From: Candidatus Thorarchaeota archaeon
GTDB taxonomy: Archaea; Asgardarchaeota; Heimdallarchaeia; Hodarchaeales; Hodarchaeaceae
Assembly: GCA_048882505.1 (NCBI GenBank)
Contig: JBHLRO010000003.1
Location: 1-32,000, forward strand
Direction of reading: 5' to 3'
DNA length: 32,000 bases
The translations under genes and the position numbers were made by a program. How positions within the stretch are numbered: the stretch's first letter is position 1; every line of letters starts with the position of its first letter. Positions 16,580 through 27,587 of the stretch are shown in pieces. The notes under the pieces were generated by a model that was not told the DNA's origin, searched no databases, and saw nothing but the letters and a program-made list of their open reading frames with translations.

Positions 16580-19192
16580 ATGCTACTAAACTCATTGATA
16601 GGGAAAAGGAAATATCTGGCCATTCTAGTTTGTATTTCCTATTATTTGTTTCTTATGACTGTTCCTAGCTCTCTTGCTAACGGCGTAATGTCCGTAAAGC
16701 CTTCCATCAATGGTTTAGAGATTTCCAGTGACCCGATATATACTGAATCAAGCGGTTCCTCAACCGATCCCCGCTCTTCGAATGTTGAGACTCCTGAACA
16801 TTACCTGATGACTCAAAAACTTCTAGGTGAAGCAGAGATATACTCAAACATCACTGTAGCGATAATATTAGACGATCTGAATTCGGTACTTGAAGGTAAC
16901 CTGTCTATCGATTACTATAATCGGGATCCTATCAATATTAGTCGTATTCCCTTCCACCTCTACCCTTCGGGAATGGCAAATGTTTCCCGAAAAGGAAGGA
17001 TAGATATTCTTGGGGTAACCGACCAGACACACACGGCCCTCTTGTTTAATGTGCTATCGGATCAACAACTTATGTGGGTGAACCTAACTGTCGATCTTTC
17101 GCCCTCTATGAGCACGAGAATAAATATAAAGTTCAATACCACCCTTCCTGACGGATATGACAGATCAAACTCCAATGGTTTTGATAGCAATCAATCACGC
17201 ATCTTTACAGCCACGGGATTCTATCCTATCCCTTGTGTTTATGATGCTATTGATGGTTGGAACACTGATCCCTATATTAATGTTAGTGATCCGTTCTACT
17301 TTGATATGGCCAACTACGAACTCACTGCTACGGTTCCTACAGGATTTATCGTTGTAGCGACAGGCGACTTGATAGACCGAATGGCTCTGGGAAACTATGT
17401 CTCTTACGAATTTAAACCGATAGCTCCTGTAAGGGAGGTCGTATTCTCAACTTCCCGGTACTTCACCGTGGAAAGTACCATGAGCAACGGAATTAATGTT
17501 TCAAGCTTCTTTTTACCGCATAGTAGTGGATTATGGTCGGAAAGAGCCCTTGATGCTTCAATTAGGGCACTAACTCTTTTTAGTGATACATTTGGTACGT
17601 ATCCTTATACTACATATAATATTGTCGAAGTGTACGGATTTTATAGCGGAATGGAGTACCCCTGTCTAGCTCAGATCTCTGAAGGAATTGCTGCACGTCA
17701 TCCTGACGATACTAATTTTTGGTTTGAACTTACCCTCGCCCACGAGGCAGCTCATCAATGGTGGAGCCAAATAGTTGGAAACAATCAAATAGATTTTGGC
17801 CATCTCGATGAAGGATTGGCTAGCTGGTCAACGGATTACTATTTTGACTATTACAATCCAAGCTGGAATTATTTTGAAGGCTATTGGGCCGTTAACGATG
17901 TTAGAACCTATTATATCACTAATAAGCAACCAGCGCGAGTCAATCAATCCGCCTATGCCTTCATTGGAACCAATATGAGTTTTAGTTTTACAGCCTACAC
18001 GAAGGCCCCCTTACTCTTCCAAAAACTTAGATCCACCCTCGGAAACACTGATTATATTTCTGGATTAAAAAACTTCTATGACGCATATAAATTTGCAACC
18101 GCAACGCTGCCCTTACTCCAACAATCTTTTGAAGAAACAACAGGCAAGAATCTAGATTGGTTCTTCCTTCCATGGTTTGACAATCCCTATCTCCCCAACT
18201 ATTATGTTAGCAATGTAACTTATGACCCTAATCAAAATAATATGAGTTTCACGGTTATGGACAGTAATGAAGATCTAAATAATTATTATTATTCCCAGAA
18301 ACTCCCGATTTTAGTCTTGGATATTCGTTCATTCGGGATATTATATGGTGATCAAATCTGGGTCAACGGTACAACGGATGTTGAGGTGAATCTGATTGAG
18401 GGAATGACTCCAGGGGAAATACGCCTTGTGTACGATTCTGAAGTTCTCGCGCAGATGGTCTCGATCGAAACTCCCTTCGTATCATACAGTGACCCCAGTT
18501 GGTTCGACAGTCTGGGACGTCCTGATCCCAGTTGGCTTTCATTTGAAAAAGACGATTGGATTGATTGGAACTATAGAGCTACTTTTACCGATATGAAGAA
18601 CCAGATAGCTTCGCTTGACCAGAGTGGGATTTTTCATTGTAATATTCTGAAAATCAAACGACTCGCCAGAACAGTAGAAATAGAATCTGAATGGCTTTGG
18701 ACCCCTTCTCATGGAATGTTTTCAGAGTTCACTGGTATATTTACCAGTTATCTTGATGCTGAAAGCCATGTCACCCCCTATCATATGGCCTTGGTTTCTT
18801 TTTTTGTAGGTTCAGATTTTCAATTTACGCCAGCATGGCTGGATTCGATAAGGCCACTTGTCGAAACGCTGAATTATGAAATACAAGATGACGGCCATAG
18901 ACTTAATGCAAGGTACTTTAGTGGCGGAGATAATTTCACGGTTTTTGCAGATTATAATTCTGATGGTATCTTGGCCAAAGTTGAAATAGCTTTCCATCCG
19001 CTTTATCCAGCTGGGAGTCAGGGCCCAGAATTACACGGGAAACTTACGCTAGTTTTACGTAACAGCTCATTCATGGACTATAGACCCGTATTGGCCTCTC
19101 TCGTAGAATTGGCTCTTATCCCTTTCTCTGGAGCCGTCGTCATAGCATATGTGGCCTGGTACCTACAAAAACGGCGGAATAATCACTCCTAA
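16580..19192 (+). CDS. Secreted, C-terminally membrane-anchored M1-family zinc aminopeptidase
   Basis: N-terminal hydrophobic signal, YSGMEYP, HEAAHQWW (HExxH), LDEGLA (third ligand), YTKA, and a C-terminal TM segment followed by KRR. The start is moved to ATG 16580 because GGTGA upstream looks like the SD. Confidence 0.9.
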   Translation: MLLNSLIGKRKYLAILVCISYYLFLMTVPSSLANGVMSVKPSINGLEISSDPIYTESSGSSTDPRSSNVETPEHYLMTQKLLGEAEIYSNITVAIILDDLNSVLEGNLSIDYYNRDPINISRIPFHLYPSGMANVSRKGRIDILGVTDQTHTALLFNVLSDQQLMWVNLTVDLSPSMSTRINIKFNTTLPDGYDRSNSNGFDSNQSRIFTATGFYPIPCVYDAIDGWNTDPYINVSDPFYFDMANYELTATVPTGFIVVATGDLIDRMALGNYVSYEFKPIAPVREVVFSTSRYFTVESTMSNGINVSSFFLPHSSGLWSERALDASIRALTLFSDTFGTYPYTTYNIVEVYGFYSGMEYPCLAQISEGIAARHPDDTNFWFELTLAHEAAHQWWSQIVGNNQIDFGHLDEGLASWSTDYYFDYYNPSWNYFEGYWAVNDVRTYYITNKQPARVNQSAYAFIGTNMSFSFTAYTKAPLLFQKLRSTLGNTDYISGLKNFYDAYKFATATLPLLQQSFEETTGKNLDWFFLPWFDNPYLPNYYVSNVTYDPNQNNMSFTVMDSNEDLNNYYYSQKLPILVLDIRSFGILYGDQIWVNGTTDVEVNLIEGMTPGEIRLVYDSEVLAQMVSIETPFVSYSDPSWFDSLGRPDPSWLSFEKDDWIDWNYRATFTDMKNQIASLDQSGIFHCNILKIKRLARTVEIESEWLWTPSHGMFSEFTGIFTSYLDAESHVTPYHMALVSFFVGSDFQFTPAWLDSIRPLVETLNYEIQDDGHRLNARYFSGGDNFTVFADYNSDGILAKVEIAFHPLYPAGSQGPELHGKLTLVLRNSSFMDYRPVLASLVELALIPFSGAVVIAYVAWYLQKRRNNHS

Positions 19193-19208
19193 CGCCAGAG
19201 ATGATAAG

Positions 19209-20465
19209 ATGGATATGCACGCTGCAATATCAAAAGAAGTAGAAAACCCTGATCCTTCTAGGATCGCTGCCATTGACTTTGCTAGAGGTCTCGTGGTTAT
19301 TTTAATGGCTCTCGATCATGCTTCGACCTATTGGAACTCAGGTCGGGTTTTCGGGGAATTCTGGTTTAGCAAACGACCCTTTCCGATGCCCGACCCATTG
19401 CAATTTCTAATACGATTGGTTTCTCATTGGTGTGCCCCAGCTTTTGTTTTTTTAGCAGGAACATCTATCATCCTTTATGAATCGTCACGAAGGAAACGAG
19501 ATATCACAGAGAACGAAATCACAAACCACCTGGTAGCACGAGGATGCGTGCTCCTAATAATCGAATGGACGCTGATCGGATGGTTATTTTCCGCTGCATC
19601 TGGTTATTTTGGAGTCCTAGCTGCGATAGGCGTTGGACTCATAATTTATGCTTTTGTCAGAAGGTTGAACACTAAAATCATTCTAGGGTTTTCTCTATTC
19701 CTTGTACTCTCCCCATTGTTTGCAGGATTTATTTGGAATCCGATATTGGAACCTGATTCTCATCCTGTGAATTTCTCGATTTTGTACCCGGGTATTATTC
19801 TCGACCCTATTCTCTCAGTAAATCCCGAATTACAAACCTGGGTTCGTACAATTCTTCATTGGCCTCAGTTCCCATATGGTCTTTACCCTTTGGATCCATG
19901 GCTTGGCGTTATGGGACTAGGGATCGTTTTTGGCCGTTGGTTGGTAAAGCAACAAGAAGAAAAGAAAACGCCGCGCAATTTTTCAAAGCAGGTAGGACTC
20001 ACGGGAGGGATAGCCTTGATTTTGTTCTTCTTTGTCCGGACACTCCTAGGGTTGCCCAGTACCTATTTCCCCATTTGGTCTACTGATGGGGTTCTCATCG
20101 AGAATGCTTTTATGATCCAGAATTATTTCTGGATGAGTAAATACCCCCCAAGCATTGTTTTTCTCCTTTGGACTTTGGGAGGAATGTGCCTCGTATTGGC
20201 AGTGGGATTTTATTTCCAGGAAAACGAAAAGTTTCAGAAGTGGGTTGGTGTAATCTTGCTATTCGGAAGCACAGCTTTGTTTTTCTATTGTACTCATTTA
20301 TTAATCTACGGTGCGGTGCCTGTTGTTTTGGGATTGGTAAAATTGTTTTCTATTCAGGTCACCTTGCTTGTCTGGATCCTGGGTTTGTTAATCCTGTATC
20401 CTTTGTGTGTACAATTTAAGCAAATCAAAAGAAAATACCCCCAAACTTTGCTTAGATACATTTAG
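19209..20465 (+). CDS. DUF1624 / heparan-alpha-glucosaminide N-acetyltransferase-like membrane protein
   Basis: RIAAIDFARGLVVILMALDH, SHWCAPAFVFLAGTS, MSKYPPS and ALFFYCTHL motifs. The in-frame ATG 19209 avoids overlap with the upstream gene. Confidence 0.88.
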   Translation: MDMHAAISKEVENPDPSRIAAIDFARGLVVILMALDHASTYWNSGRVFGEFWFSKRPFPMPDPLQFLIRLVSHWCAPAFVFLAGTSIILYESSRRKRDITENEITNHLVARGCVLLIIEWTLIGWLFSAASGYFGVLAAIGVGLIIYAFVRRLNTKIILGFSLFLVLSPLFAGFIWNPILEPDSHPVNFSILYPGIILDPILSVNPELQTWVRTILHWPQFPYGLYPLDPWLGVMGLGIVFGRWLVKQQEEKKTPRNFSKQVGLTGGIALILFFFVRTLLGLPSTYFPIWSTDGVLIENAFMIQNYFWMSKYPPSIVFLLWTLGGMCLVLAVGFYFQENEKFQKWVGVILLFGSTALFFYCTHLLIYGAVPVVLGLVKLFSIQVTLLVWILGLLILYPLCVQFKQIKRKYPQTLLRYI

Positions 20466-20507: not shown

Positions 20508-21824
20508 CTAAAGAAAAGGAGATAGAATGATTAGATAAATCGTCCCAATTAGAAGATGGAAAACACCTAAAACTCCACCGAGTCTAAAGAATTCAAAGAA
20601 CGAGATTGGAGACCCTTCCCGATTGGATAAATTAATGGCTAGTATATTCGCTGGACTGCCTATTGGCAAGATGTATCCACCTAGATTTACTGCAATCACT
20701 AATCCCCACCATTTTATATTATCGACAACCCCAATCACTTGTAGATCTGCAAAAACTGGCGCCAAGGCGGCAGAAACTGGAATATTGTCCACAACTGCTG
20801 ATATGGCTCCAATTCCAAATGATATGAGTGGTAAACTAAAAAACAGGTCTAGTTCAAAAAAAGGAGTCAGGATTTCGGCGAGGATTTCTAATATGCCAAG
20901 AATTTCAATCGATCCCACCAGTATGAATAATCCCATTATGAAGTAGATAGAAATCCATTCGACATCACGAAAGATATCTTTTGGGTGCATTCCACTAAAC
21001 AACAGAAGCCCGGCAGCAACTACAAGTGCTATTTCTGCTGCCTTAAGATGAAAAATCGATCCAAAAATAAATCCTGAAACCAGAACAATCAATCCAAATA
21101 TGACCGAATAAAAGGTCCTCCGATTTTCAACAAGAACTCCTGGATCCAAAAGAAAAATCTCGGAGACAAGATCGGGAGAGGGATCTTGAAACTTCTTACG
21201 TGCATAGAAGATATAGAATGGCAACGCCGTTAGTAGTAGAATCAAACTAAGCGGCCCCATAACCAATATAAAGTCAAGAAAGGTGGCGCCGCTTTTATCT
21301 GCAAGAACTATATTTGGTATGCTTCCAACGAGGGAGGAGATCGAGGCAAAATTTGCTGTTATTGCTTCAATTGTTAGCATTGGGCGAAAATCAAAATCCA
21401 AGATTCGATAAATCTCTACGGTCAGTGGTGCTACGATCAACATCGTAGTGATTACATCAAAGACGAAACTAATGATAAAAGTTACAAGAGTGAGCGATAA
21501 TAGTAAAGTTCTTGGATTCCCTTGAGTAAATCGGACTATTATGATGCTAATATATTGAAAAAGGCCTGACCTGCTAGAGATGATGGTAATTATCATCATC
21601 GCAGTGATAAAGATTAGTGTATTCCATTCAACTCGGAAAATTATGGTTTCAAATTCGGTCGGGCGCCCTTCATATTGCCATTGGGTTATTATCAAAAGAA
21701 CTGATATGGCCCCGGCACCCAATAGCGCTGAAATCGGTCGGTGGAGTTTTTCTGTTGAAATAAGTATATAGGTGCCAATAAAAATTGCGATACCTATGAT
21801 CTGAACAAGTTCGAGTGCGGCCAT
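20508..21824 (-). CDS. ArsB/NhaD/SLC13-family ion transporter permease
   Basis: EKLHRPISALLGA, VEWNTLIFITAMMII, SLVGSIPNIVL, SAVVDNIP and NLGGYILPIGSPANILA motifs; many TM segments. Confidence 0.9.
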   Translation of the reverse strand: MAALELVQIIGIAIFIGTYILISTEKLHRPISALLGAGAISVLLIITQWQYEGRPTEFETIIFRVEWNTLIFITAMMIITIISSRSGLFQYISIIIVRFTQGNPRTLLLSLTLVTFIISFVFDVITTMLIVAPLTVEIYRILDFDFRPMLTIEAITANFASISSLVGSIPNIVLADKSGATFLDFILVMGPLSLILLLTALPFYIFYARKKFQDPSPDLVSEIFLLDPGVLVENRRTFYSVIFGLIVLVSGFIFGSIFHLKAAEIALVVAAGLLLFSGMHPKDIFRDVEWISIYFIMGLFILVGSIEILGILEILAEILTPFFELDLFFSLPLISFGIGAISAVVDNIPVSAALAPVFADLQVIGVVDNIKWWGLVIAVNLGGYILPIGSPANILAINLSNREGSPISFFEFFRLGGVLGVFHLLIGTIYLIILSPFL

Positions 21825-22192
21825 TAATGAAACTTCACGATCGGAGATATTGATGAATATGATAGAATATTGGCTATTCTTTTTTCTCTAATTGCTTCAC
21901 AAAGGACGTATTGAGGAGATCAAAGGCTCATAATATATCTTACTGGTGGACATCTGCATATCTGATACTCTTGCAGATCCCCTGAATCTTCAAGCTAATT
22001 CATGCGTAATCATTATACTTCTACGCAATTAAATTAATAAGATTGTTGTTGATCAAACATAAGTGATAGATTCAAATTCAAGAGTATCAATTATTCTCAG
22101 CATATTCAAGATTAGTACTCCAAGTCAATTTTGACTCTCTAATAGGAAATTCGTATAGCTACCACAAATTAAAAGCCAAATGGTGTCCGTGT

Positions 22193-23116
22193 TTGAAGGA
22201 ACTTGATATAAAATCCAATATTGATTTGGTTATGGGAGAAATAGTAGATCTCATTCATAATGCAGTGAAAGAAAGAAAATACGATGGGGTACTCATATGG
22301 TTTTCAGGATTTATCGATTCGACCGTAATCACCAAATTATCACTTGAGGCCCTGGATGAGAATAAGATAAAGATCCTTCTCCGGTCAGAAAAGTTTTATG
22401 AAGATTACGACGAGATATGCAACAGTTCATTAGATTACCTAGGGATAAAGAAAGAGAATATTGAAGAGTGCGATGTGGATGAATTGTTGGATAAATTTGG
22501 CTCCGGACCCCTTGTCGAAGGATCGATTAGGCAGATTCCCCTGGTAAGCACCCGCTTGAGCTATTCCCTTCTGAAGGGTGCCTCGCTTGGTGAGATAAAG
22601 GATAAAACGTACGGATTTGTTGGCAAAGCATCCTCTGGGAGGGATGAATTGCTCAATCGTATAATCGCACACAATAAACTTGGCTCCAGAATTCAAATGG
22701 CTTCGGCGTATTTGATTGCAGAGACAGAAAATCGACTATTGATCAGTACTCTCAATAAAACCGAATTGATGACTGGTTTATTCACCAAATTTGGAAGGGG
22801 ACAGTGCGCTGATCTAATGCCTCTTGGACATCTATATAGATCCCAAATATTGCAGTTGGCTGAATTTTTGGATGTTCCAGAAACCATCAGAAGTGCTGCT
22901 AAAGTCGACCTTCTTCCAGGGGTTGAGAACAAGTATTTGTATTTCTTTAATCTGCCAGCTTATGATGTTGACAAAGTTCTGGTATTATTAGAAGCTGGTC
23001 GATCGGTTCAGGACATTCAGAGCGAACTGAACCTTTCTATTGAAGAGATTGAGAGAATTAGTACGTTTGTTGCCTCATCTGCGTATTCAAGAACTGCACC
23101 TTTGATGATTAAATAA
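22193..23116 (+). CDS. NH3-dependent NAD+ synthetase (NadE)-like protein, degenerate paralog 1
   Basis: GVLIWFSGFIDSTV (canonical SGGxDS), SRIQM, STLNKTE, GLFTKFG...ADLMPLGHLYRSQILQLAEFL. Confidence 0.75.
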   Translation: MKELDIKSNIDLVMGEIVDLIHNAVKERKYDGVLIWFSGFIDSTVITKLSLEALDENKIKILLRSEKFYEDYDEICNSSLDYLGIKKENIEECDVDELLDKFGSGPLVEGSIRQIPLVSTRLSYSLLKGASLGEIKDKTYGFVGKASSGRDELLNRIIAHNKLGSRIQMASAYLIAETENRLLISTLNKTELMTGLFTKFGRGQCADLMPLGHLYRSQILQLAEFLDVPETIRSAAKVDLLPGVENKYLYFFNLPAYDVDKVLVLLEAGRSVQDIQSELNLSIEEIERISTFVASSAYSRTAPLMIK

Positions 23117-23280
23117 ACAAAATCCTTACGGTAAATTTACCTCGAAATTTCAAAGAGATTCAGTTAAGGCATTTTCAAGAATAACACTTGCCATTCGGTG
23201 AATGGATATAAAAAACTCGCCCATGATAGCTTTTGAAAATAAGTAAATTCTAGAGCAACTATTGTATGTTCGTTTGAATA

Positions 23281-24240
23281 TTATATCTCGGGAATTAAGG
23301 GAACTGCTCTAGCGTACTTGGATACGTCGTAATAATACCTGATCTTCTGTATCGCATCAAAATGGACCCCAGTCTCTTGATGGATTTCTTCCATGGAATA
23401 ACCTCCGACCTCAAGTCTTAACAAAACGCGGTCTACCTCCCTATATGATAGATCAAAGAAAAATCTATAACTTGTTGGTATCTTCTCGACTCTTTCATCG
23501 AGATATTTGTTTAAGTTTAGATATTCCGCCAATTGAACGACCTGTGTTTTATAAAGCGCAGCTAAAGGGAGAAAATCGGCCGCATGATAGGTTCCGAATT
23601 TTGTAAAGAGCCCCAAGAGCCATTCTGTTTTATTGACATGACCAATATAAGATTTATTTTCTATTTCAGCCAGAAGGAAAGAGAGAAGCATATTTAGACG
23701 TATCCGGCTTTTATAATGGGCTATTGACTGACGAATAAACTTCTCCCTTTTGGTGCCTGGCCGTTTTGAAGGAGGGCTGAATGTTTCCAACTCAAAATCA
23801 TCGCGGGCCATGCTCTTAAACAAGATATAGCTTAAATTATAATTTAATATCGGAAGACTGTCAGTAGCTGAACGAGCTACCATCATTCCGGTTTTTTCTG
23901 AGTAAACCCTGCCGATATCCCGAATTATTTTCTCTATATTGATGAAAACAAGACTTTCGTTTGGTAGGTTAAGATATTGTTTTATCAACTCTGTGTCCCT
24001 CTCCCTCGTTGGCTTTCTACTACTGAATCTGCCTTGAGTCACGATCAGACTGATATTTTCCGCCCCTACGGCCGCAGATGCCAATTTAACGTTAACAAGA
24101 GACTCAACATCGTCTCTAAAAAGTAGAATTAGGCCTTCAATGTCTCTTTCTTCCAAGTAGGAACGGAGGAATTCGACAATTTTCTCTTCAACAGAACTTG
24201 GGTCGATTTGTAACCTTTCATCCAAATCCATTTCGTTCAT
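23281..24240 (-). CDS. NadE-like protein, degenerate paralog 2
   Basis: The PP-loop position reads LFRDDVESLV; SRIRL, GHVNKTE and GLFTKFG...ADFLPLAALYKTQVVQLAEYL are present. Confidence 0.72.
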   Translation of the reverse strand: MNEMDLDERLQIDPSSVEEKIVEFLRSYLEERDIEGLILLFRDDVESLVNVKLASAAVGAENISLIVTQGRFSSRKPTRERDTELIKQYLNLPNESLVFINIEKIIRDIGRVYSEKTGMMVARSATDSLPILNYNLSYILFKSMARDDFELETFSPPSKRPGTKREKFIRQSIAHYKSRIRLNMLLSFLLAEIENKSYIGHVNKTEWLLGLFTKFGTYHAADFLPLAALYKTQVVQLAEYLNLNKYLDERVEKIPTSYRFFFDLSYREVDRVLLRLEVGGYSMEEIHQETGVHFDAIQKIRYYYDVSKYARAVPLIPEI

Positions 24241-24293: not shown

Positions 24294-25373
24294 TTAGATG
24301 GGGACGAAGGTTTCGTCTTTGGAAATTGACTTAATCAGGTTCACGACCAAATTAACGCAATTTTCCACGTCATCTAAACTGATAACCTCACTAGCAGTGT
24401 GCATATAGCGATTCGGAATACTTACTAGGGCTGTAGCTGCTCCAACTAATTGAAGAGCATTGGCATCTGTACCTGTTCCCCTATGTGCAGCTTTTCTTTG
24501 ATAGGGTATATTAAGTTCTTCAGCGAGCTTAATGATCTTTTGAAATAAGTTGGGGTTTATATTCGGACCTACCGAGATAATTGGGCCCTGACCAAGCTTG
24601 GTATCGCCCACTAGCTTTTTCTTGATTTCTGGTGCATCCGCCGCATGTCCGACATCAAAAGCAATCCCTACCTCTGGTCTTATACTTCTTGCTGCCACTG
24701 TGGCACCACGCATCCCGATCTCTTCTTGTACTGAACTTACTCCATATACTCCTGCAAAGAACTGCTTATCACTGGAAAGTTCTTTCATTATTTCCATTGT
24801 GATAAAGGCACCGATCGCGTCATCAAAGCCAGCCGAGGCTGCATAGTTATGGTCTCCAAGGCGTTGGTATCCGTGATCAAAAACCGCAAAATCACCGATT
24901 TCAACCTTTGATTCTGCTTCCTCCTTATTATGACATCCAATGTCTATGAAGATCTTCTCGATGTCAGGAGATTTTTTGCGTTCTTCTGGTTTTATTATGT
25001 GAATTGGCTTCCTGCCAATAACTCCAGGTATCGCGCCAGTTTTTCCCCAAACTTTCACTCTTTTACCTGCTAATGTGGACGGGTCAAATCCACCCAACGG
25101 TAAGAACCAAAGGAATCCATTTTTATCGATATAACTAATTTGGAACCCGATCTGGTCGATATGTCCTACAAGCATAACCTTGGTTGGTGATTCTGGATTG
25201 ATCACTGCGATTAGATTCCCAACTCGATCTCCGTAAAGCTGGTCTAAATTCGCTTCCGACTGCAGATAATCCTTGATCAAGCGTTGGGCGGAAAATTCGT
25301 ATCCCGTGGCCCTCGGTGTTGAGAGCAATTGTTTCAGAAACCCCTCATTTATGGTGTATGCCAATATGATCAC
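24294..25373 (-). CDS. M42-family (TET-like) metallopeptidase
   Basis: GNLIA, GHIDQIG, AGFDDAIG, VQEEIGMRGA, AFDV and RYMHTASE motifs. Confidence 0.92.
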   Translation of the reverse strand: MIILAYTINEGFLKQLLSTPRATGYEFSAQRLIKDYLQSEANLDQLYGDRVGNLIAVINPESPTKVMLVGHIDQIGFQISYIDKNGFLWFLPLGGFDPSTLAGKRVKVWGKTGAIPGVIGRKPIHIIKPEERKKSPDIEKIFIDIGCHNKEEAESKVEIGDFAVFDHGYQRLGDHNYAASAGFDDAIGAFITMEIMKELSSDKQFFAGVYGVSSVQEEIGMRGATVAARSIRPEVGIAFDVGHAADAPEIKKKLVGDTKLGQGPIISVGPNINPNLFQKIIKLAEELNIPYQRKAAHRGTGTDANALQLVGAATALVSIPNRYMHTASEVISLDDVENCVNLVVNLIKSISKDETFVPI

Positions 25374-25439: not shown

Positions 25440-26081
25440 TTACGGCAGACGAAGCGGGAGTGCATTCGATTCCCTGTTCTGAGATTGTAATTTCTGTTTA
25501 TGAATCAAACTGTTAATTATTTCAGTTGAAAGTAATCTAAACGTCTCGTCGATATTGACATTCTCCTTGGAGGATGTTTCAACATAATGAATGGAAAAAC
25601 CATGTGTTTCCTGAACTAATCGCGATAATCGTTTGGCGTACTCAATCCCCTGCGCTGTAGAGACCTGTCCATGATATGATATCATCCCGCGAAGATCGCA
25701 CTTCGCACCCACCAGCATTAATGGGCGCTCCCCTTGGCCGTTCAGTTTCCAAAATGAGCTAATCCATTCTTCAACATTCATGAATGAATTAGGGTTTGTT
25801 ATGTCAAAAAAGCATAACGCCGCGACTGCTCCTCGATAATAGAGGTTGCTTACAACCTTAAACCGTGGTTGGCCAGCTAGGTCCCAAATCTGATATTTAA
25901 TTAGATATTCTGTTTTTGTTGGCCCGTATTCGATTTTGACTTCTTTTGCGGCAAAATCCGCTCCCAAAGTCATTAAGTATTGAGCTTGGAATGTATCACC
26001 CAACCAAACTCTTCTGAACGAACTTTTACCTACTCCACCATCTCCAACCAATACAATTTTCGCTCGAAGAACTTTTACCAT
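25440..26081 (-). CDS. Rab-like small GTPase (Ras superfamily)
   Basis: G1 GDGGVGKS, G2 YLMTLGADF, G3 WDLAGQ, YYRGA, G4 VGAKCD and G5 ETSSK. SD-like GAGGGT upstream. Confidence 0.93.
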   Translation of the reverse strand: MVKVLRAKIVLVGDGGVGKSSFRRVWLGDTFQAQYLMTLGADFAAKEVKIEYGPTKTEYLIKYQIWDLAGQPRFKVVSNLYYRGAVAALCFFDITNPNSFMNVEEWISSFWKLNGQGERPLMLVGAKCDLRGMISYHGQVSTAQGIEYAKRLSRLVQETHGFSIHYVETSSKENVNIDETFRLLSTEIINSLIHKQKLQSQNRESNALPLRLP

Positions 26082-26507: not shown

Positions 26508-27587
26508 TCAAACTTCATCTAATCCCCCCCATGAACTGACAAATTCCCACAAGGTCTTATAGAGATTTGCAAAGACAGTTAGGTAAGCTACTTCGAATCC
26601 ATGACTGTTCTTCCGAATATGCCCAATACAAGCGGTTTGAGGACTAGCACCAATGCTCCCTACTTGACCTGCATCACTCCCACTTGTAGTATAGACAAGG
26701 TGTTGAAGCTCAGTACCTACATTTTTCGCCGCATCAGACAATGCCTGGTTCAACTTGGGGCTGTAGAAATATCCCCGATCACGAACCCTAATTCCAGGTC
26801 TATCATCTAGCTCCGTAGGTGATTCAGATGCGATTGGACAACCGTCCACAGCAATGAAGTAGGTCGGAGTTAGTGATTGTGCCAAGTGTTTTGCTCCAAA
26901 GCAACCGATCTCCTCTCTGGTCGTAAATGCAATTATAAGATTCACAACTGGAGTAACGTTCTTTGTTTTTAGGGTTTTTAATATTTGGAGTAGAATAGCG
27001 ACCCCTATTTTATCATCGAATGTCCACGCCCCTATCATTGGATTTGATTCTTCTCCAAAAAATATGGGCCCTCTTTCCGATTGACTCAGAGTAATCAGAG
27101 TTCCAGGTTTAACGCCATAACCTTTCAAACTTTCGGGAGGCAATCCAGTGATAACAGCAGTTTCTCTCCACTCTAATTTCTGTGTACCACCTGCGGCGTG
27201 TCCTGATCCCATCGCCGTAACACCAGAAATCGTCGCATTATCACCAAAGACGTCAACTGGACGTTCCCCATATTTCCATGTTAATGATCCTCCTATCCTC
27301 TCAACTCCTAGTGTACCATCACCATTAATTTTTGTTACCATTAATCCGATTTCATCTGTATGTGATGCCAAACAACAAGTTTCCTCACTTTGCTTCTTGC
27401 CTGGTATTTGAACATAGACATTCCCTGCCGAATCCTTCTGGGGATTATATCCCCACTCATTACACTTTCGGTAAATGTGATCAGCTATCTTGTCTTCCAT
27501 TCCCGAAGGAGAAGGAATAGTAAGCAATTCGGTGAATTGTTGGATTATTGCGCTCTGCTTGATCTGCTCATATCTACTAGATTCCAT
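26508..27587 (-). CDS. M42-family metallopeptidase, second divergent paralog
   Basis: DSAGNVY, SHTDEIG, TFDDKIG, TREEIG, AVDG, GSDAG and NSHGFE motifs. Confidence 0.9.
   Translation of the reverse strand: MESSRYEQIKQSAIIQQFTELLTIPSPSGMEDKIADHIYRKCNEWGYNPQKDSAGNVYVQIPGKKQSEETCCLASHTDEIGLMVTKINGDGTLGVERIGGSLTWKYGERPVDVFGDNATISGVTAMGSGHAAGGTQKLEWRETAVITGLPPESLKGYGVKPGTLITLSQSERGPIFFGEESNPMIGAWTFDDKIGVAILLQILKTLKTKNVTPVVNLIIAFTTREEIGCFGAKHLAQSLTPTYFIAVDGCPIASESPTELDDRPGIRVRDRGYFYSPKLNQALSDAAKNVGTELQHLVYTTSGSDAGQVGSIGASPQTACIGHIRKNSHGFEVAYLTVFANLYKTLWEFVSSWGGLDEV

Follow-up and report, generated by a model that had tools for sequence, protein, structure and literature searches.

A permease-linked pair of NadE-like paralogs with altered PP-loops in a Hodarchaeales genus of Asgard archaea

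Ammonia-dependent nicotinamide adenine dinucleotide (NAD) synthetase, NadE, is usually regarded as a single-function housekeeping enzyme of the N-type ATP pyrophosphatases, which adenylate carboxyl or carbonyl groups, and its substrate pocket spans both subunits. In the Ctu1-Ctu2 (Ncs6-Ncs2) system of tRNA thiolation, a PP-loop ATPase is paired with a paralog that has no PP-loop. Among soluble nucleotide-binding partners encoded beside permeases, ArsA, the partner of ArsB, is a P-loop NTPase, and universal stress protein (USP) domains, of about 140 residues, form a different AANH family. Here we describe two NadE-like paralogs, A and B, in a 32,000-nucleotide window, the whole stretch of DNA analysed, which covers positions 1 to 32,000 of contig JBHLRO010000003.1 (C3 below) of the Candidatus Thorarchaeota archaeon assembly GCA_048882505.1 (4.3 Mb, 94.6% complete; Hodarchaeales). 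Both are intact and under selection, and they belong to a branch of the NadE (N-type ATP pyrophosphatase) superfamily that is specific to Asgard archaea; A lies beside a gene for a permease of the ArsB/CitMHS family. We assign a probability of about 40% to the reading that A and B form a heterodimer with one remodelled nucleotide site, which acts as an accessory or regulatory module of that permease.

Compared with NadE (PF02540; PDB 2e18, 1xng, 1nsy), A and B are alike in fold, family and predicted dimer interface, and retain the NK[ST]E Mg ligand, GxFTK and the Arg/Lys phosphate binders. They differ in the absence of the SGGxDS consensus, in an altered GDG Asp, PSAxL...TDE loop and SxHKR motif, in an extra insert of 45-55 residues and in their linkage to a permease. 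The likeness to Ctu1-Ctu2 and Ncs6-Ncs2, a PP-loop-superfamily protein with a degenerate paralog as partner, is an analogy only, the A:B pairing being predicted; those proteins belong to another family and have no permease, whereas in A:B even the loop of the 'active' partner is non-canonical. Similarly, ArsA-ArsB and the USP regulators offer an analogy, in that a permease of the ArsB/IT superfamily or another kind has a neighbouring gene for a soluble partner that binds nucleotide and is pseudo-dimeric or of AANH fold, but the ArsA fold is unrelated to that of A and B, USP is another AANH family, and here the association is known from gene neighbourhood.

Both proteins match PF02540 (NAD_synthase) in a Pfam search, A with E 1e-30 and B with E 3.9e-20, and they align with each other over their full length in BLASTP (29% identity, E 4e-41). 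By this similarity, which is far beyond chance, they are NadE-family paralogs; sequence matches in the PDB point to the same family. Coordinates, domain matches and the A-B alignment agree with the initial annotation, which had described two tail-to-tail NadE-fold genes. The features in question are as follows.

22193-23116, + strand: NadE-like paralog A, 307 residues, with a TTG start common to its orthologs and the variant PP-loop SGFIDS.
23281-24240, - strand: NadE-like paralog B, 319 residues, PP-loop and P2 loop lost.
23117-23280, no strand: spacer of 164 base pairs (bp) between the convergent stop codons of A and B.
22304-22321, + strand: codons of the variant PP-loop of A, S38-G39-F40-I41-D42-S43, from the translation.
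24100-24117, - strand: codons of the former PP-loop of B, R42-D43-D44-V45-E46-S47, from the translation.
20508-21824, - strand: ArsB/CitMHS-family permease gene perm1, 438 residues, divergent from A, matching PF03600 CitMHS (E 4e-59) and PF02040 ArsB (E 4e-18).
21825-22192, no strand: divergent intergenic region between the permease gene and A, 368 bp, with the presumed promoters.

The SGGxDS consensus is found in neither protein: residues 38-43 of A read SGFIDS and residues 42-47 of B read RDDVES. The further motifs pointed out in the initial annotation are all present, NKTE and GLFTKFG in both proteins and (Y/F)FFxL as YLYFFNL in A and YRFFFDL in B, and the central region of each is lengthened by some 45-55 residues relative to canonical NadE. 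Both loops had been called degenerate, which holds for B but not for A. The A loop departs from SGGxDS at one position, and because SG[Y/F/H]xDST is invariant in A-type orthologs it is a fixed variant, not an eroding loop. In the A-type alignment, F-S-G-[Y/F]-x-D-S-T is invariant (by residue, G39, D42, S43 and T44 invariant and S38 nearly so), one further ortholog outside the alignment reads SGHMDS, and FSG[Y/F/H]xDST describes the A-type orthologs together. The PP-loop is lost in all 19 aligned B orthologs, where the consensus at the loop position is LYKDCIES and E46, the equivalent of the loop Asp, is the sole invariant residue; in the same proteins the block NKTEWLLGLFTKFGTYHAADFLPL...LYRTQV.QLA is nearly invariant.

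Several motifs that contact nicotinic acid adenine dinucleotide are also altered. The catalytic Asp of GxFTKxGDG, D173 in B. subtilis, falls at an alignment position reading GRGQCAD in A, GTYHAAD in B and G-DGAAD in the canonical copy of the same genome. In place of the P2 loop PSAxL...QTDE and the C-terminal SxHKR, A reads AKVDLLPGVENKY and SAYSR, and B has a 6-residue deletion, no DxxPG, and SKYAR. In A-type proteins the Mg-ligand Glu (in NKTE), the Arg/Lys phosphate binders, a DLLPG loop and T-K within GLFTK are retained, and B-type proteins have kept both acidic metal-ligand positions together with a highly conserved interface/pocket segment. The changes specific to the A/B clade are the loss of the second PP-loop glycine, the loss of the remaining loop Asp (GRGQ or GHGH in A, GTYH in B), the replacement of His by Tyr in SxHKR, and a conserved C-terminal PL(I/M)PK tail.

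A whole-genome PF02540 search located a canonical NadE on contig C21, a check that the initial annotation had proposed. This copy carries SGGIDS, GYFTKYGDG, PSAGL...QTDE and SEHKR, and is overlapped upstream by a CN_hydrolase (glutaminase) gene. The same genome encodes a third paralog, C, an A-type protein of 316 residues with the loop SGYIDS (contig C32, L003:1435-2385, - strand), which has an ortholog in the sister genome G061 and had escaped the initial annotation. Against NF010587 (cut-off 255 bits) the C21 copy scores 299.8, and A, B and C score 115.5, 108.6 and 112.3; the C21 copy is the sole one in the genome above an NCBIfam equivalog cut-off, and A and B fall under half of every such cut-off. 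The domain cut-off of TIGR00552 (63.65) is passed by A with 96.8 and by B only just, with 64.0. Because the canonical glutaminase and NadE pair makes the NAD of the cell, neither A nor B does so, and neither is needed for NAD synthesis, in line with the earlier view that they are not working NAD synthetases. In GenBank, A-type proteins are named 'NAD(+) synthase' and B-type proteins 'hypothetical protein'. As far as their sequences tell, A and B fail every NadE-defining feature that can be tested (PP-loop, GDG Asp, TDE/HKR, equivalog scores and pathway role), and the NAD synthase label should not be applied to them.

The origin of the pair is indicated by its relatives. An exhaustive phmmer search with A retrieved a large group of 'long-form' NadE-like proteins of about 300 residues with the same central insert, from metagenomic sequences, apparently mostly bacterial, and from other Heimdallarchaeia. 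In class i of this group GDG and TDE are kept. Class ii, whose SGGxDS is intact, carries GLFxKFG and DxxPGxxDKY, in which DKY replaces TDE, and its counterpart of GDG is G[V/I]D[H/D]CAD. That loop is kept in every full-length class-ii representative examined and in no member of the A/B/D/E clade, D and E being further paralog types. By alignment, A and B share with class ii the central insert and the GLFxKFG, Gxx[H/D]CAD and DKY motifs. The initial annotation correctly noted NKTE, GLFTKFG, the missing PSA/TDE loop and the lengthened centre, but to judge from the comparison the pair inherited these features from the long-form class, intact-loop members included, and did not evolve them itself.

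Class ii is also the phylogenetic parent group. Trees were inferred in IQ-TREE under LG+C20+F+G4 from 84 and then 70 sequences, with a quick search first and, for the second set, a careful search as well. A, B, the D/E types and five distant Asgard proteins (P0104-P0108, with the loops SGQNDS, SGYIDS, NGFIDS, RNSMNS and DGSIES) form one variant clade with support 100/100 and a stem of 1.34 substitutions per site; within it A has support 100/99 and B 100/100, and the clade is nested among class-ii proteins with support 94/92. The ancient duplication proposed earlier is borne out by this topology. From the clade and its nesting it follows that the PP-loop was altered once on the stem and then eroded independently in several sub-lineages. 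The class-ii proteins resemble A and B in the insert, in GLFxKFG, in a seven-residue G-x-x-H/D-C-A-D loop, in the DxxPGxxDKY loop and in length (about 300-315 residues). They differ in that SGGxDS and the G[V/I]D Asp are kept, permeases do not adjoin them, and A and B stand on a long separate stem. They are annotated as NAD+ synthase and uncharacterised, and the nearest NCBIfam models (NF002048/PRK00876 and NF010587) all score below cut-off. Full-text literature searches found nothing on NadE pseudoenzymes, Asgard NadE-like paralogs, the long class-ii form or the A/B clade, and such paralogs are not mentioned by De Ingeniis et al. (2012; PMC3376133).

Some further observations concern these relatives. 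Identity to A is 37-41% for paralog type D and 33% for type E, both of which have a conserved SGQxDS and no adjoining permeases; they occur at L057-L062 and L064, in genomes G051, G053, G054, G056, G059, G060 and G066, and the genome of the window has neither. The Heimdall class-ii genes adjoin a gene for a full metallo-beta-lactamase fold in four of seven loci. Paralog C adjoins a 189-residue open reading frame (L003:2579-3148, - strand) whose similarity to the metallo-beta-lactamase domain is confined to the C-terminal portion, and this remnant, together with the neighbours of the class-ii genes, suggests an older association between NadE-like and metallo-beta-lactamase genes. The gene contexts of the metagenomic class-ii genes at L015 and L016 and of P0107 (L014) were uninformative.

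About 45 homologs of A (48-92% identity) and about 100 of B (46-64%) were found; those of B that are named all come from Hodarchaeales or Heimdall-type Asgard archaea, and the named homologs of A from Hodarchaeales or other Heimdall-type Asgard archaea. Among 400 Asgard species genomes, with clade membership set at 180 bits or more to the A profile, A/B-clade proteins occur only in the GTDB genus of the window (20 of the 21 other genomes), and outside it only class-ii, intact-loop proteins were found. Both A-type and B-type proteins are present in those 20 genomes and in that of the window, at 3-6 copies of the offshoot per genome; the exception is a 71%-complete, 1.4-Mb assembly. Comparison with G061 (92% amino-acid identity) gives ratios of nonsynonymous to synonymous substitution rates (dN/dS) of 0.069 in A, 0.116 in B and 0.065 in the permease gene next to them. 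With such ratios A and B are under purifying selection and are not decaying. The initial annotation had suggested checks of selection and pair conservation; of the outcome that it named as refuting, lineage-restricted decaying copies, the restriction to one genus holds among the 400 genomes but the decay does not.

The main functional clue, overlooked in the initial annotation, is the linkage to ArsB/CitMHS-family permeases. The best NCBIfam matches of perm1 (MamN and ArsB) are far under their cut-offs, and its orthologs, at 75-93% identity, are present in all 21 other genomes of the genus, in two as fragments. An A-type gene adjoins perm1 also in G061, with the same divergent layout and a 367-bp gap, and in G063 (contig C222), G064 (contig C460), L043 and L044. 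In other genomes of the genus a paralogous permease of about 500 residues, perm2, about 30% identical to perm1, is encoded divergently beside B, often with A on its other side. An ArsB/CitMHS permease match lies within 1 kb of 27/49 A and B genes of the genus (16/27 for B and 11/22 for A), compared with 0/9 for the C, D and E types. Since the genomes are close kin, these figures make the cases look more independent than they are; the arrangements that count as distinct are B-perm2, A-perm2, A-perm1 and those of L023 and L024. Several of the A and B genes with no nearby permease lie on short contigs or beside perm2 remnants.

The association persists through rearrangement. B-perm2 modules have been duplicated as units, 2-3 per genome, and a trio of the form A-permease-B or permease-A-B recurs with two different permease paralogs. 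The sub-lineage of the window has built it with perm1, in the order perm1(-)/A(+)/B(-) here and in G061 and as the mirror image in L044. The order at L043 is perm1, a 197-residue open reading frame, A and B, the last two being in tandem 38 bp apart. Further, ArsB/CitMHS permeases are also the neighbours of two distantly related Asgard proteins, P0105 and P0106 (about 40% identity; L023 and L024), P0106 lying 35 bp upstream of the permease gene on the same strand. No such permease was found near the intact-loop class-ii genes at seven Heimdall loci and on two metagenomic contigs, within the approximately 3-10 kb that the contigs reach. Because the intact-loop loci have no permease and the relatives of A and B do, the permease link appears together with the PP-loop change. 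Two side observations belong to these loci. In the A-permease-B trio of one relative, A is separated from the permease by an inserted PIN-domain gene with a small upstream reading frame, reminiscent of a toxin-antitoxin pair (L013:3419-4091), and a 305-residue reading frame after the permease in L024, considered as a third NadE-like gene, was rejected as unrelated to B (hhalign probability 0.3).

The pairing of A with B was approached by structure prediction. The AlphaFold2 model of A has a predicted local distance difference test (pLDDT) score of 77.6, with low confidence in the insert at residues 106-146, and all its top matches in a search of the PDB are canonical short or glutaminase-fused NadE (2e18 and 1xng among them, with a template modelling score of about 0.8 by target). 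PDB 5huh is the NadE of Streptococcus pyogenes and not a long-form Streptomyces protein. The monomer model of B is poor (pLDDT 63.6, under 50 in its most conserved segment, 179-227) and was left out of the fold search and site analysis for its low confidence. A protein atlas search returned generic NadE-family clusters only. The predicted A:B complex reached an interface score from aligned errors (ipSAE) of 0.76 in three runs, against 0.01 for the best control; this mark is attained by 58/80 solved complexes and by 2/110 mismatched pairs. At least 80% of contacts are shared between runs, with partner pLDDT of at least 73, and the predicted interface is formed by the NadE dimer helix together with the GLFTKFG loops and the C-terminal PL(I/M)PK tails peculiar to the clade. 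Dimerisation through the NadE interface is thus predicted, as the earlier notion of a heterodimeric pair requires, but preference over homodimers is not told apart by the score. Because NadE homodimers are among solved structures and the contact residues of A and B are equivalent, the score shows likeness to the NadE dimer and not a heterodimer preference.

A single-chain counterpart is provided by the bacterial tandem NadE-NadE fusions P0111 and P0117 (L042:4001-5491), of 491-496 residues, in which a PP-loop-less unit is joined to an intact-loop unit, so that asymmetric NadE pairs have evolved elsewhere. The short first unit lacks a PP-loop (...LNFDLNS...), and the second, of the long form, carries SGGIDS and GDG. 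These fusions differ from A and B in this canonical C-terminal unit, in their bacterial host, in the flagellar and bactofilin genes nearby and in having no permease within the 4 kb read on each side.

These observations suggest the following course of events. The branch would have arisen once from long-form class-ii NadE-like proteins, with the second PP-loop glycine replaced on its stem; A-type proteins would then have fixed SG[Y/F/H]xDST, and B-type proteins would have lost the PP-loop and the P2 loop. Using the conserved NadE dimer interface, A and B may form a heterodimer in which A contributes a remodelled site for nucleotide or phosphate and the site of B is dead. Such a heterodimer could bind a ligand or ATP in the cytoplasm and, as an accessory module, control transport by the adjacent anion permease of the ArsB/CitMHS family. 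We infer the coupling to the permease, and its regulatory rather than biosynthetic nature, from the conserved neighbourhood and the motif losses.

A number of points weigh against this reading. The link between A/B and the permeases is one of gene neighbourhood, in genomes that are not independent, and half of the A genes, as well as the C, D and E types, have no adjacent permease. The perm2 type is absent from the genome of the window and from G061, and tblastn detected no perm2 remnant in the window, the A-B spacer included. In G056 and G049 the permease neighbour is a remnant while B or A is intact. The perm2 fragments there are L038:3235-3762 (G056; 75% identity to perm2 over 176 residues) and L041:4370-4639 (G049; 73% over 92 residues), and it seems that the permease decayed at these loci while the NadE-like gene persisted, or that the assemblies are in error. 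No fusion of B with a permease or another domain was found in a search for relatives of 560-2000 residues, which is weak evidence. Also, the interface residues are equivalent in A and B (for example R166/Y173 in A and R181/F188 in B), AA and BB dimers look equally feasible, and the ipSAE may only echo the solved NadE homodimers. Finally, nearly every residue needed for adenylation chemistry is kept in A-type proteins, which fits an enzyme as well as a sensor.

The last point bears on a second explanation, in which A:B, or A by itself, is an adenylating enzyme with new chemistry that activates a carboxylate or related anion imported by the permease (metabolic trapping), B being non-catalytic and completing the interface pocket. 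S-G-x-x-D-S-T, the Mg-ligand Glu, T-K, the equivalents of Arg166 and Arg216 and the DLLPG loop are strictly conserved in A, D and E, the nearest relatives have intact PP-loops and are presumably enzymes, and the permease linkage is equally compatible with import of a substrate. We nevertheless consider such an enzyme somewhat unlikely. An accessory module is preferred over it because the whole clade has lost the NadE catalytic Asp and the HK motif, with the second PP-loop Gly, the GDG Asp and SxHKR altered clade-wide, because the PP-loop keeps eroding in several lineages, because no other pathway genes are conserved nearby, and because B duplicates together with its permease, in modules that do not include A. 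Duplication of B-perm2 modules in the absence of A, the occurrence of A alone, and the quasi-symmetry of the predicted interface residues would also suit unpaired proteins, each with a homodimer and a role of its own (for example A with perm1 and B with perm2), which would be neighbours here through a local rearrangement. Since the permease lies between A and B in most genomes, their convergent arrangement is indeed derived. This explanation appears improbable: the grouping of A and B with a permease is kept across several gene orders, the 38-bp tandem among them, and with two different permease paralogs, both types co-occur in nearly the whole genus (20/21 other genomes plus that of the window), and the A:B heterodimer prediction passed its controls.

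It is very improbable that one or both proteins are working NH3-dependent NAD synthetase isozymes. The PF02540 match, the TIGR00552 domain cut-off, passed by B with 64.0 against 63.65, and the GenBank label of the A-type would fit such isozymes; the departure from the PP-loop consensus, the altered GDG Asp, TDE loop and SxHKR, scores under half of every equivalog cut-off, and the presence of canonical NadE with its glutaminase speak against them. Decay of A and B is excluded: their clade is confined to one genus among the 400 Asgard species genomes, as would be expected of lineage-restricted decaying duplicates, but dozens of genomes carry intact reading frames at about 50% identity, the dN/dS values lie at 0.07-0.12, and long invariant motif blocks are retained.

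Other genes surround the pair in the window. On the strand of B, and upstream of it, a gap of 53 bp separates B from the end of a gene for an M42 aminopeptidase (24294-25373, - strand), which is itself preceded by genes for a Ras/Rab-like small GTPase (25440-26081, - strand) and a second M42-family peptidase (26508-27587, - strand). B may be co-transcribed here with these peptidase and GTPase genes, a neighbourhood not conserved in other genomes. Convergent with perm1 is a gene (19149-20465, + strand) for a 438-residue membrane protein with an HGSNAT-type catalytic domain, that is, heparan-alpha-glucosaminide N-acetyltransferase-like (PF07786, E 1e-13). PADLOC gave no match for A, B or the permease in a search for a defence context.

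For a family in which NadE is usually regarded as a housekeeping enzyme, A and B constitute a well-delimited, selected offshoot that has lost the catalytic signature and is tied to a permease family. The database annotation is corrected accordingly, for A-type proteins now called 'NAD(+) synthase' and for B-type proteins called 'hypothetical protein'. The pair is a tractable test case for the passage from a homodimer with interface active sites to an asymmetric pair. A bolder form of the accessory-module reading, which we regard as unlikely, is that the NadE-fold A:B heterodimer is a previously undescribed transporter accessory complex of N-type ATP-pyrophosphatase fold, having a remodelled SG[aromatic]xDS nucleotide site beside a dead one, that docks on ArsB/CitMHS permeases of the ion transporter (IT) superfamily, with B as a permease-specific adaptor and A as a nucleotide- or NAD-precursor-sensing or energising subunit. 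If A:B does dock on the permease, it would be a functional parallel to ArsA-ArsB from an unrelated fold. If the coupling is physical, it would represent a new type of accessory partner for IT-superfamily transporters, in an archaeal lineage often discussed as near the eukaryotes.

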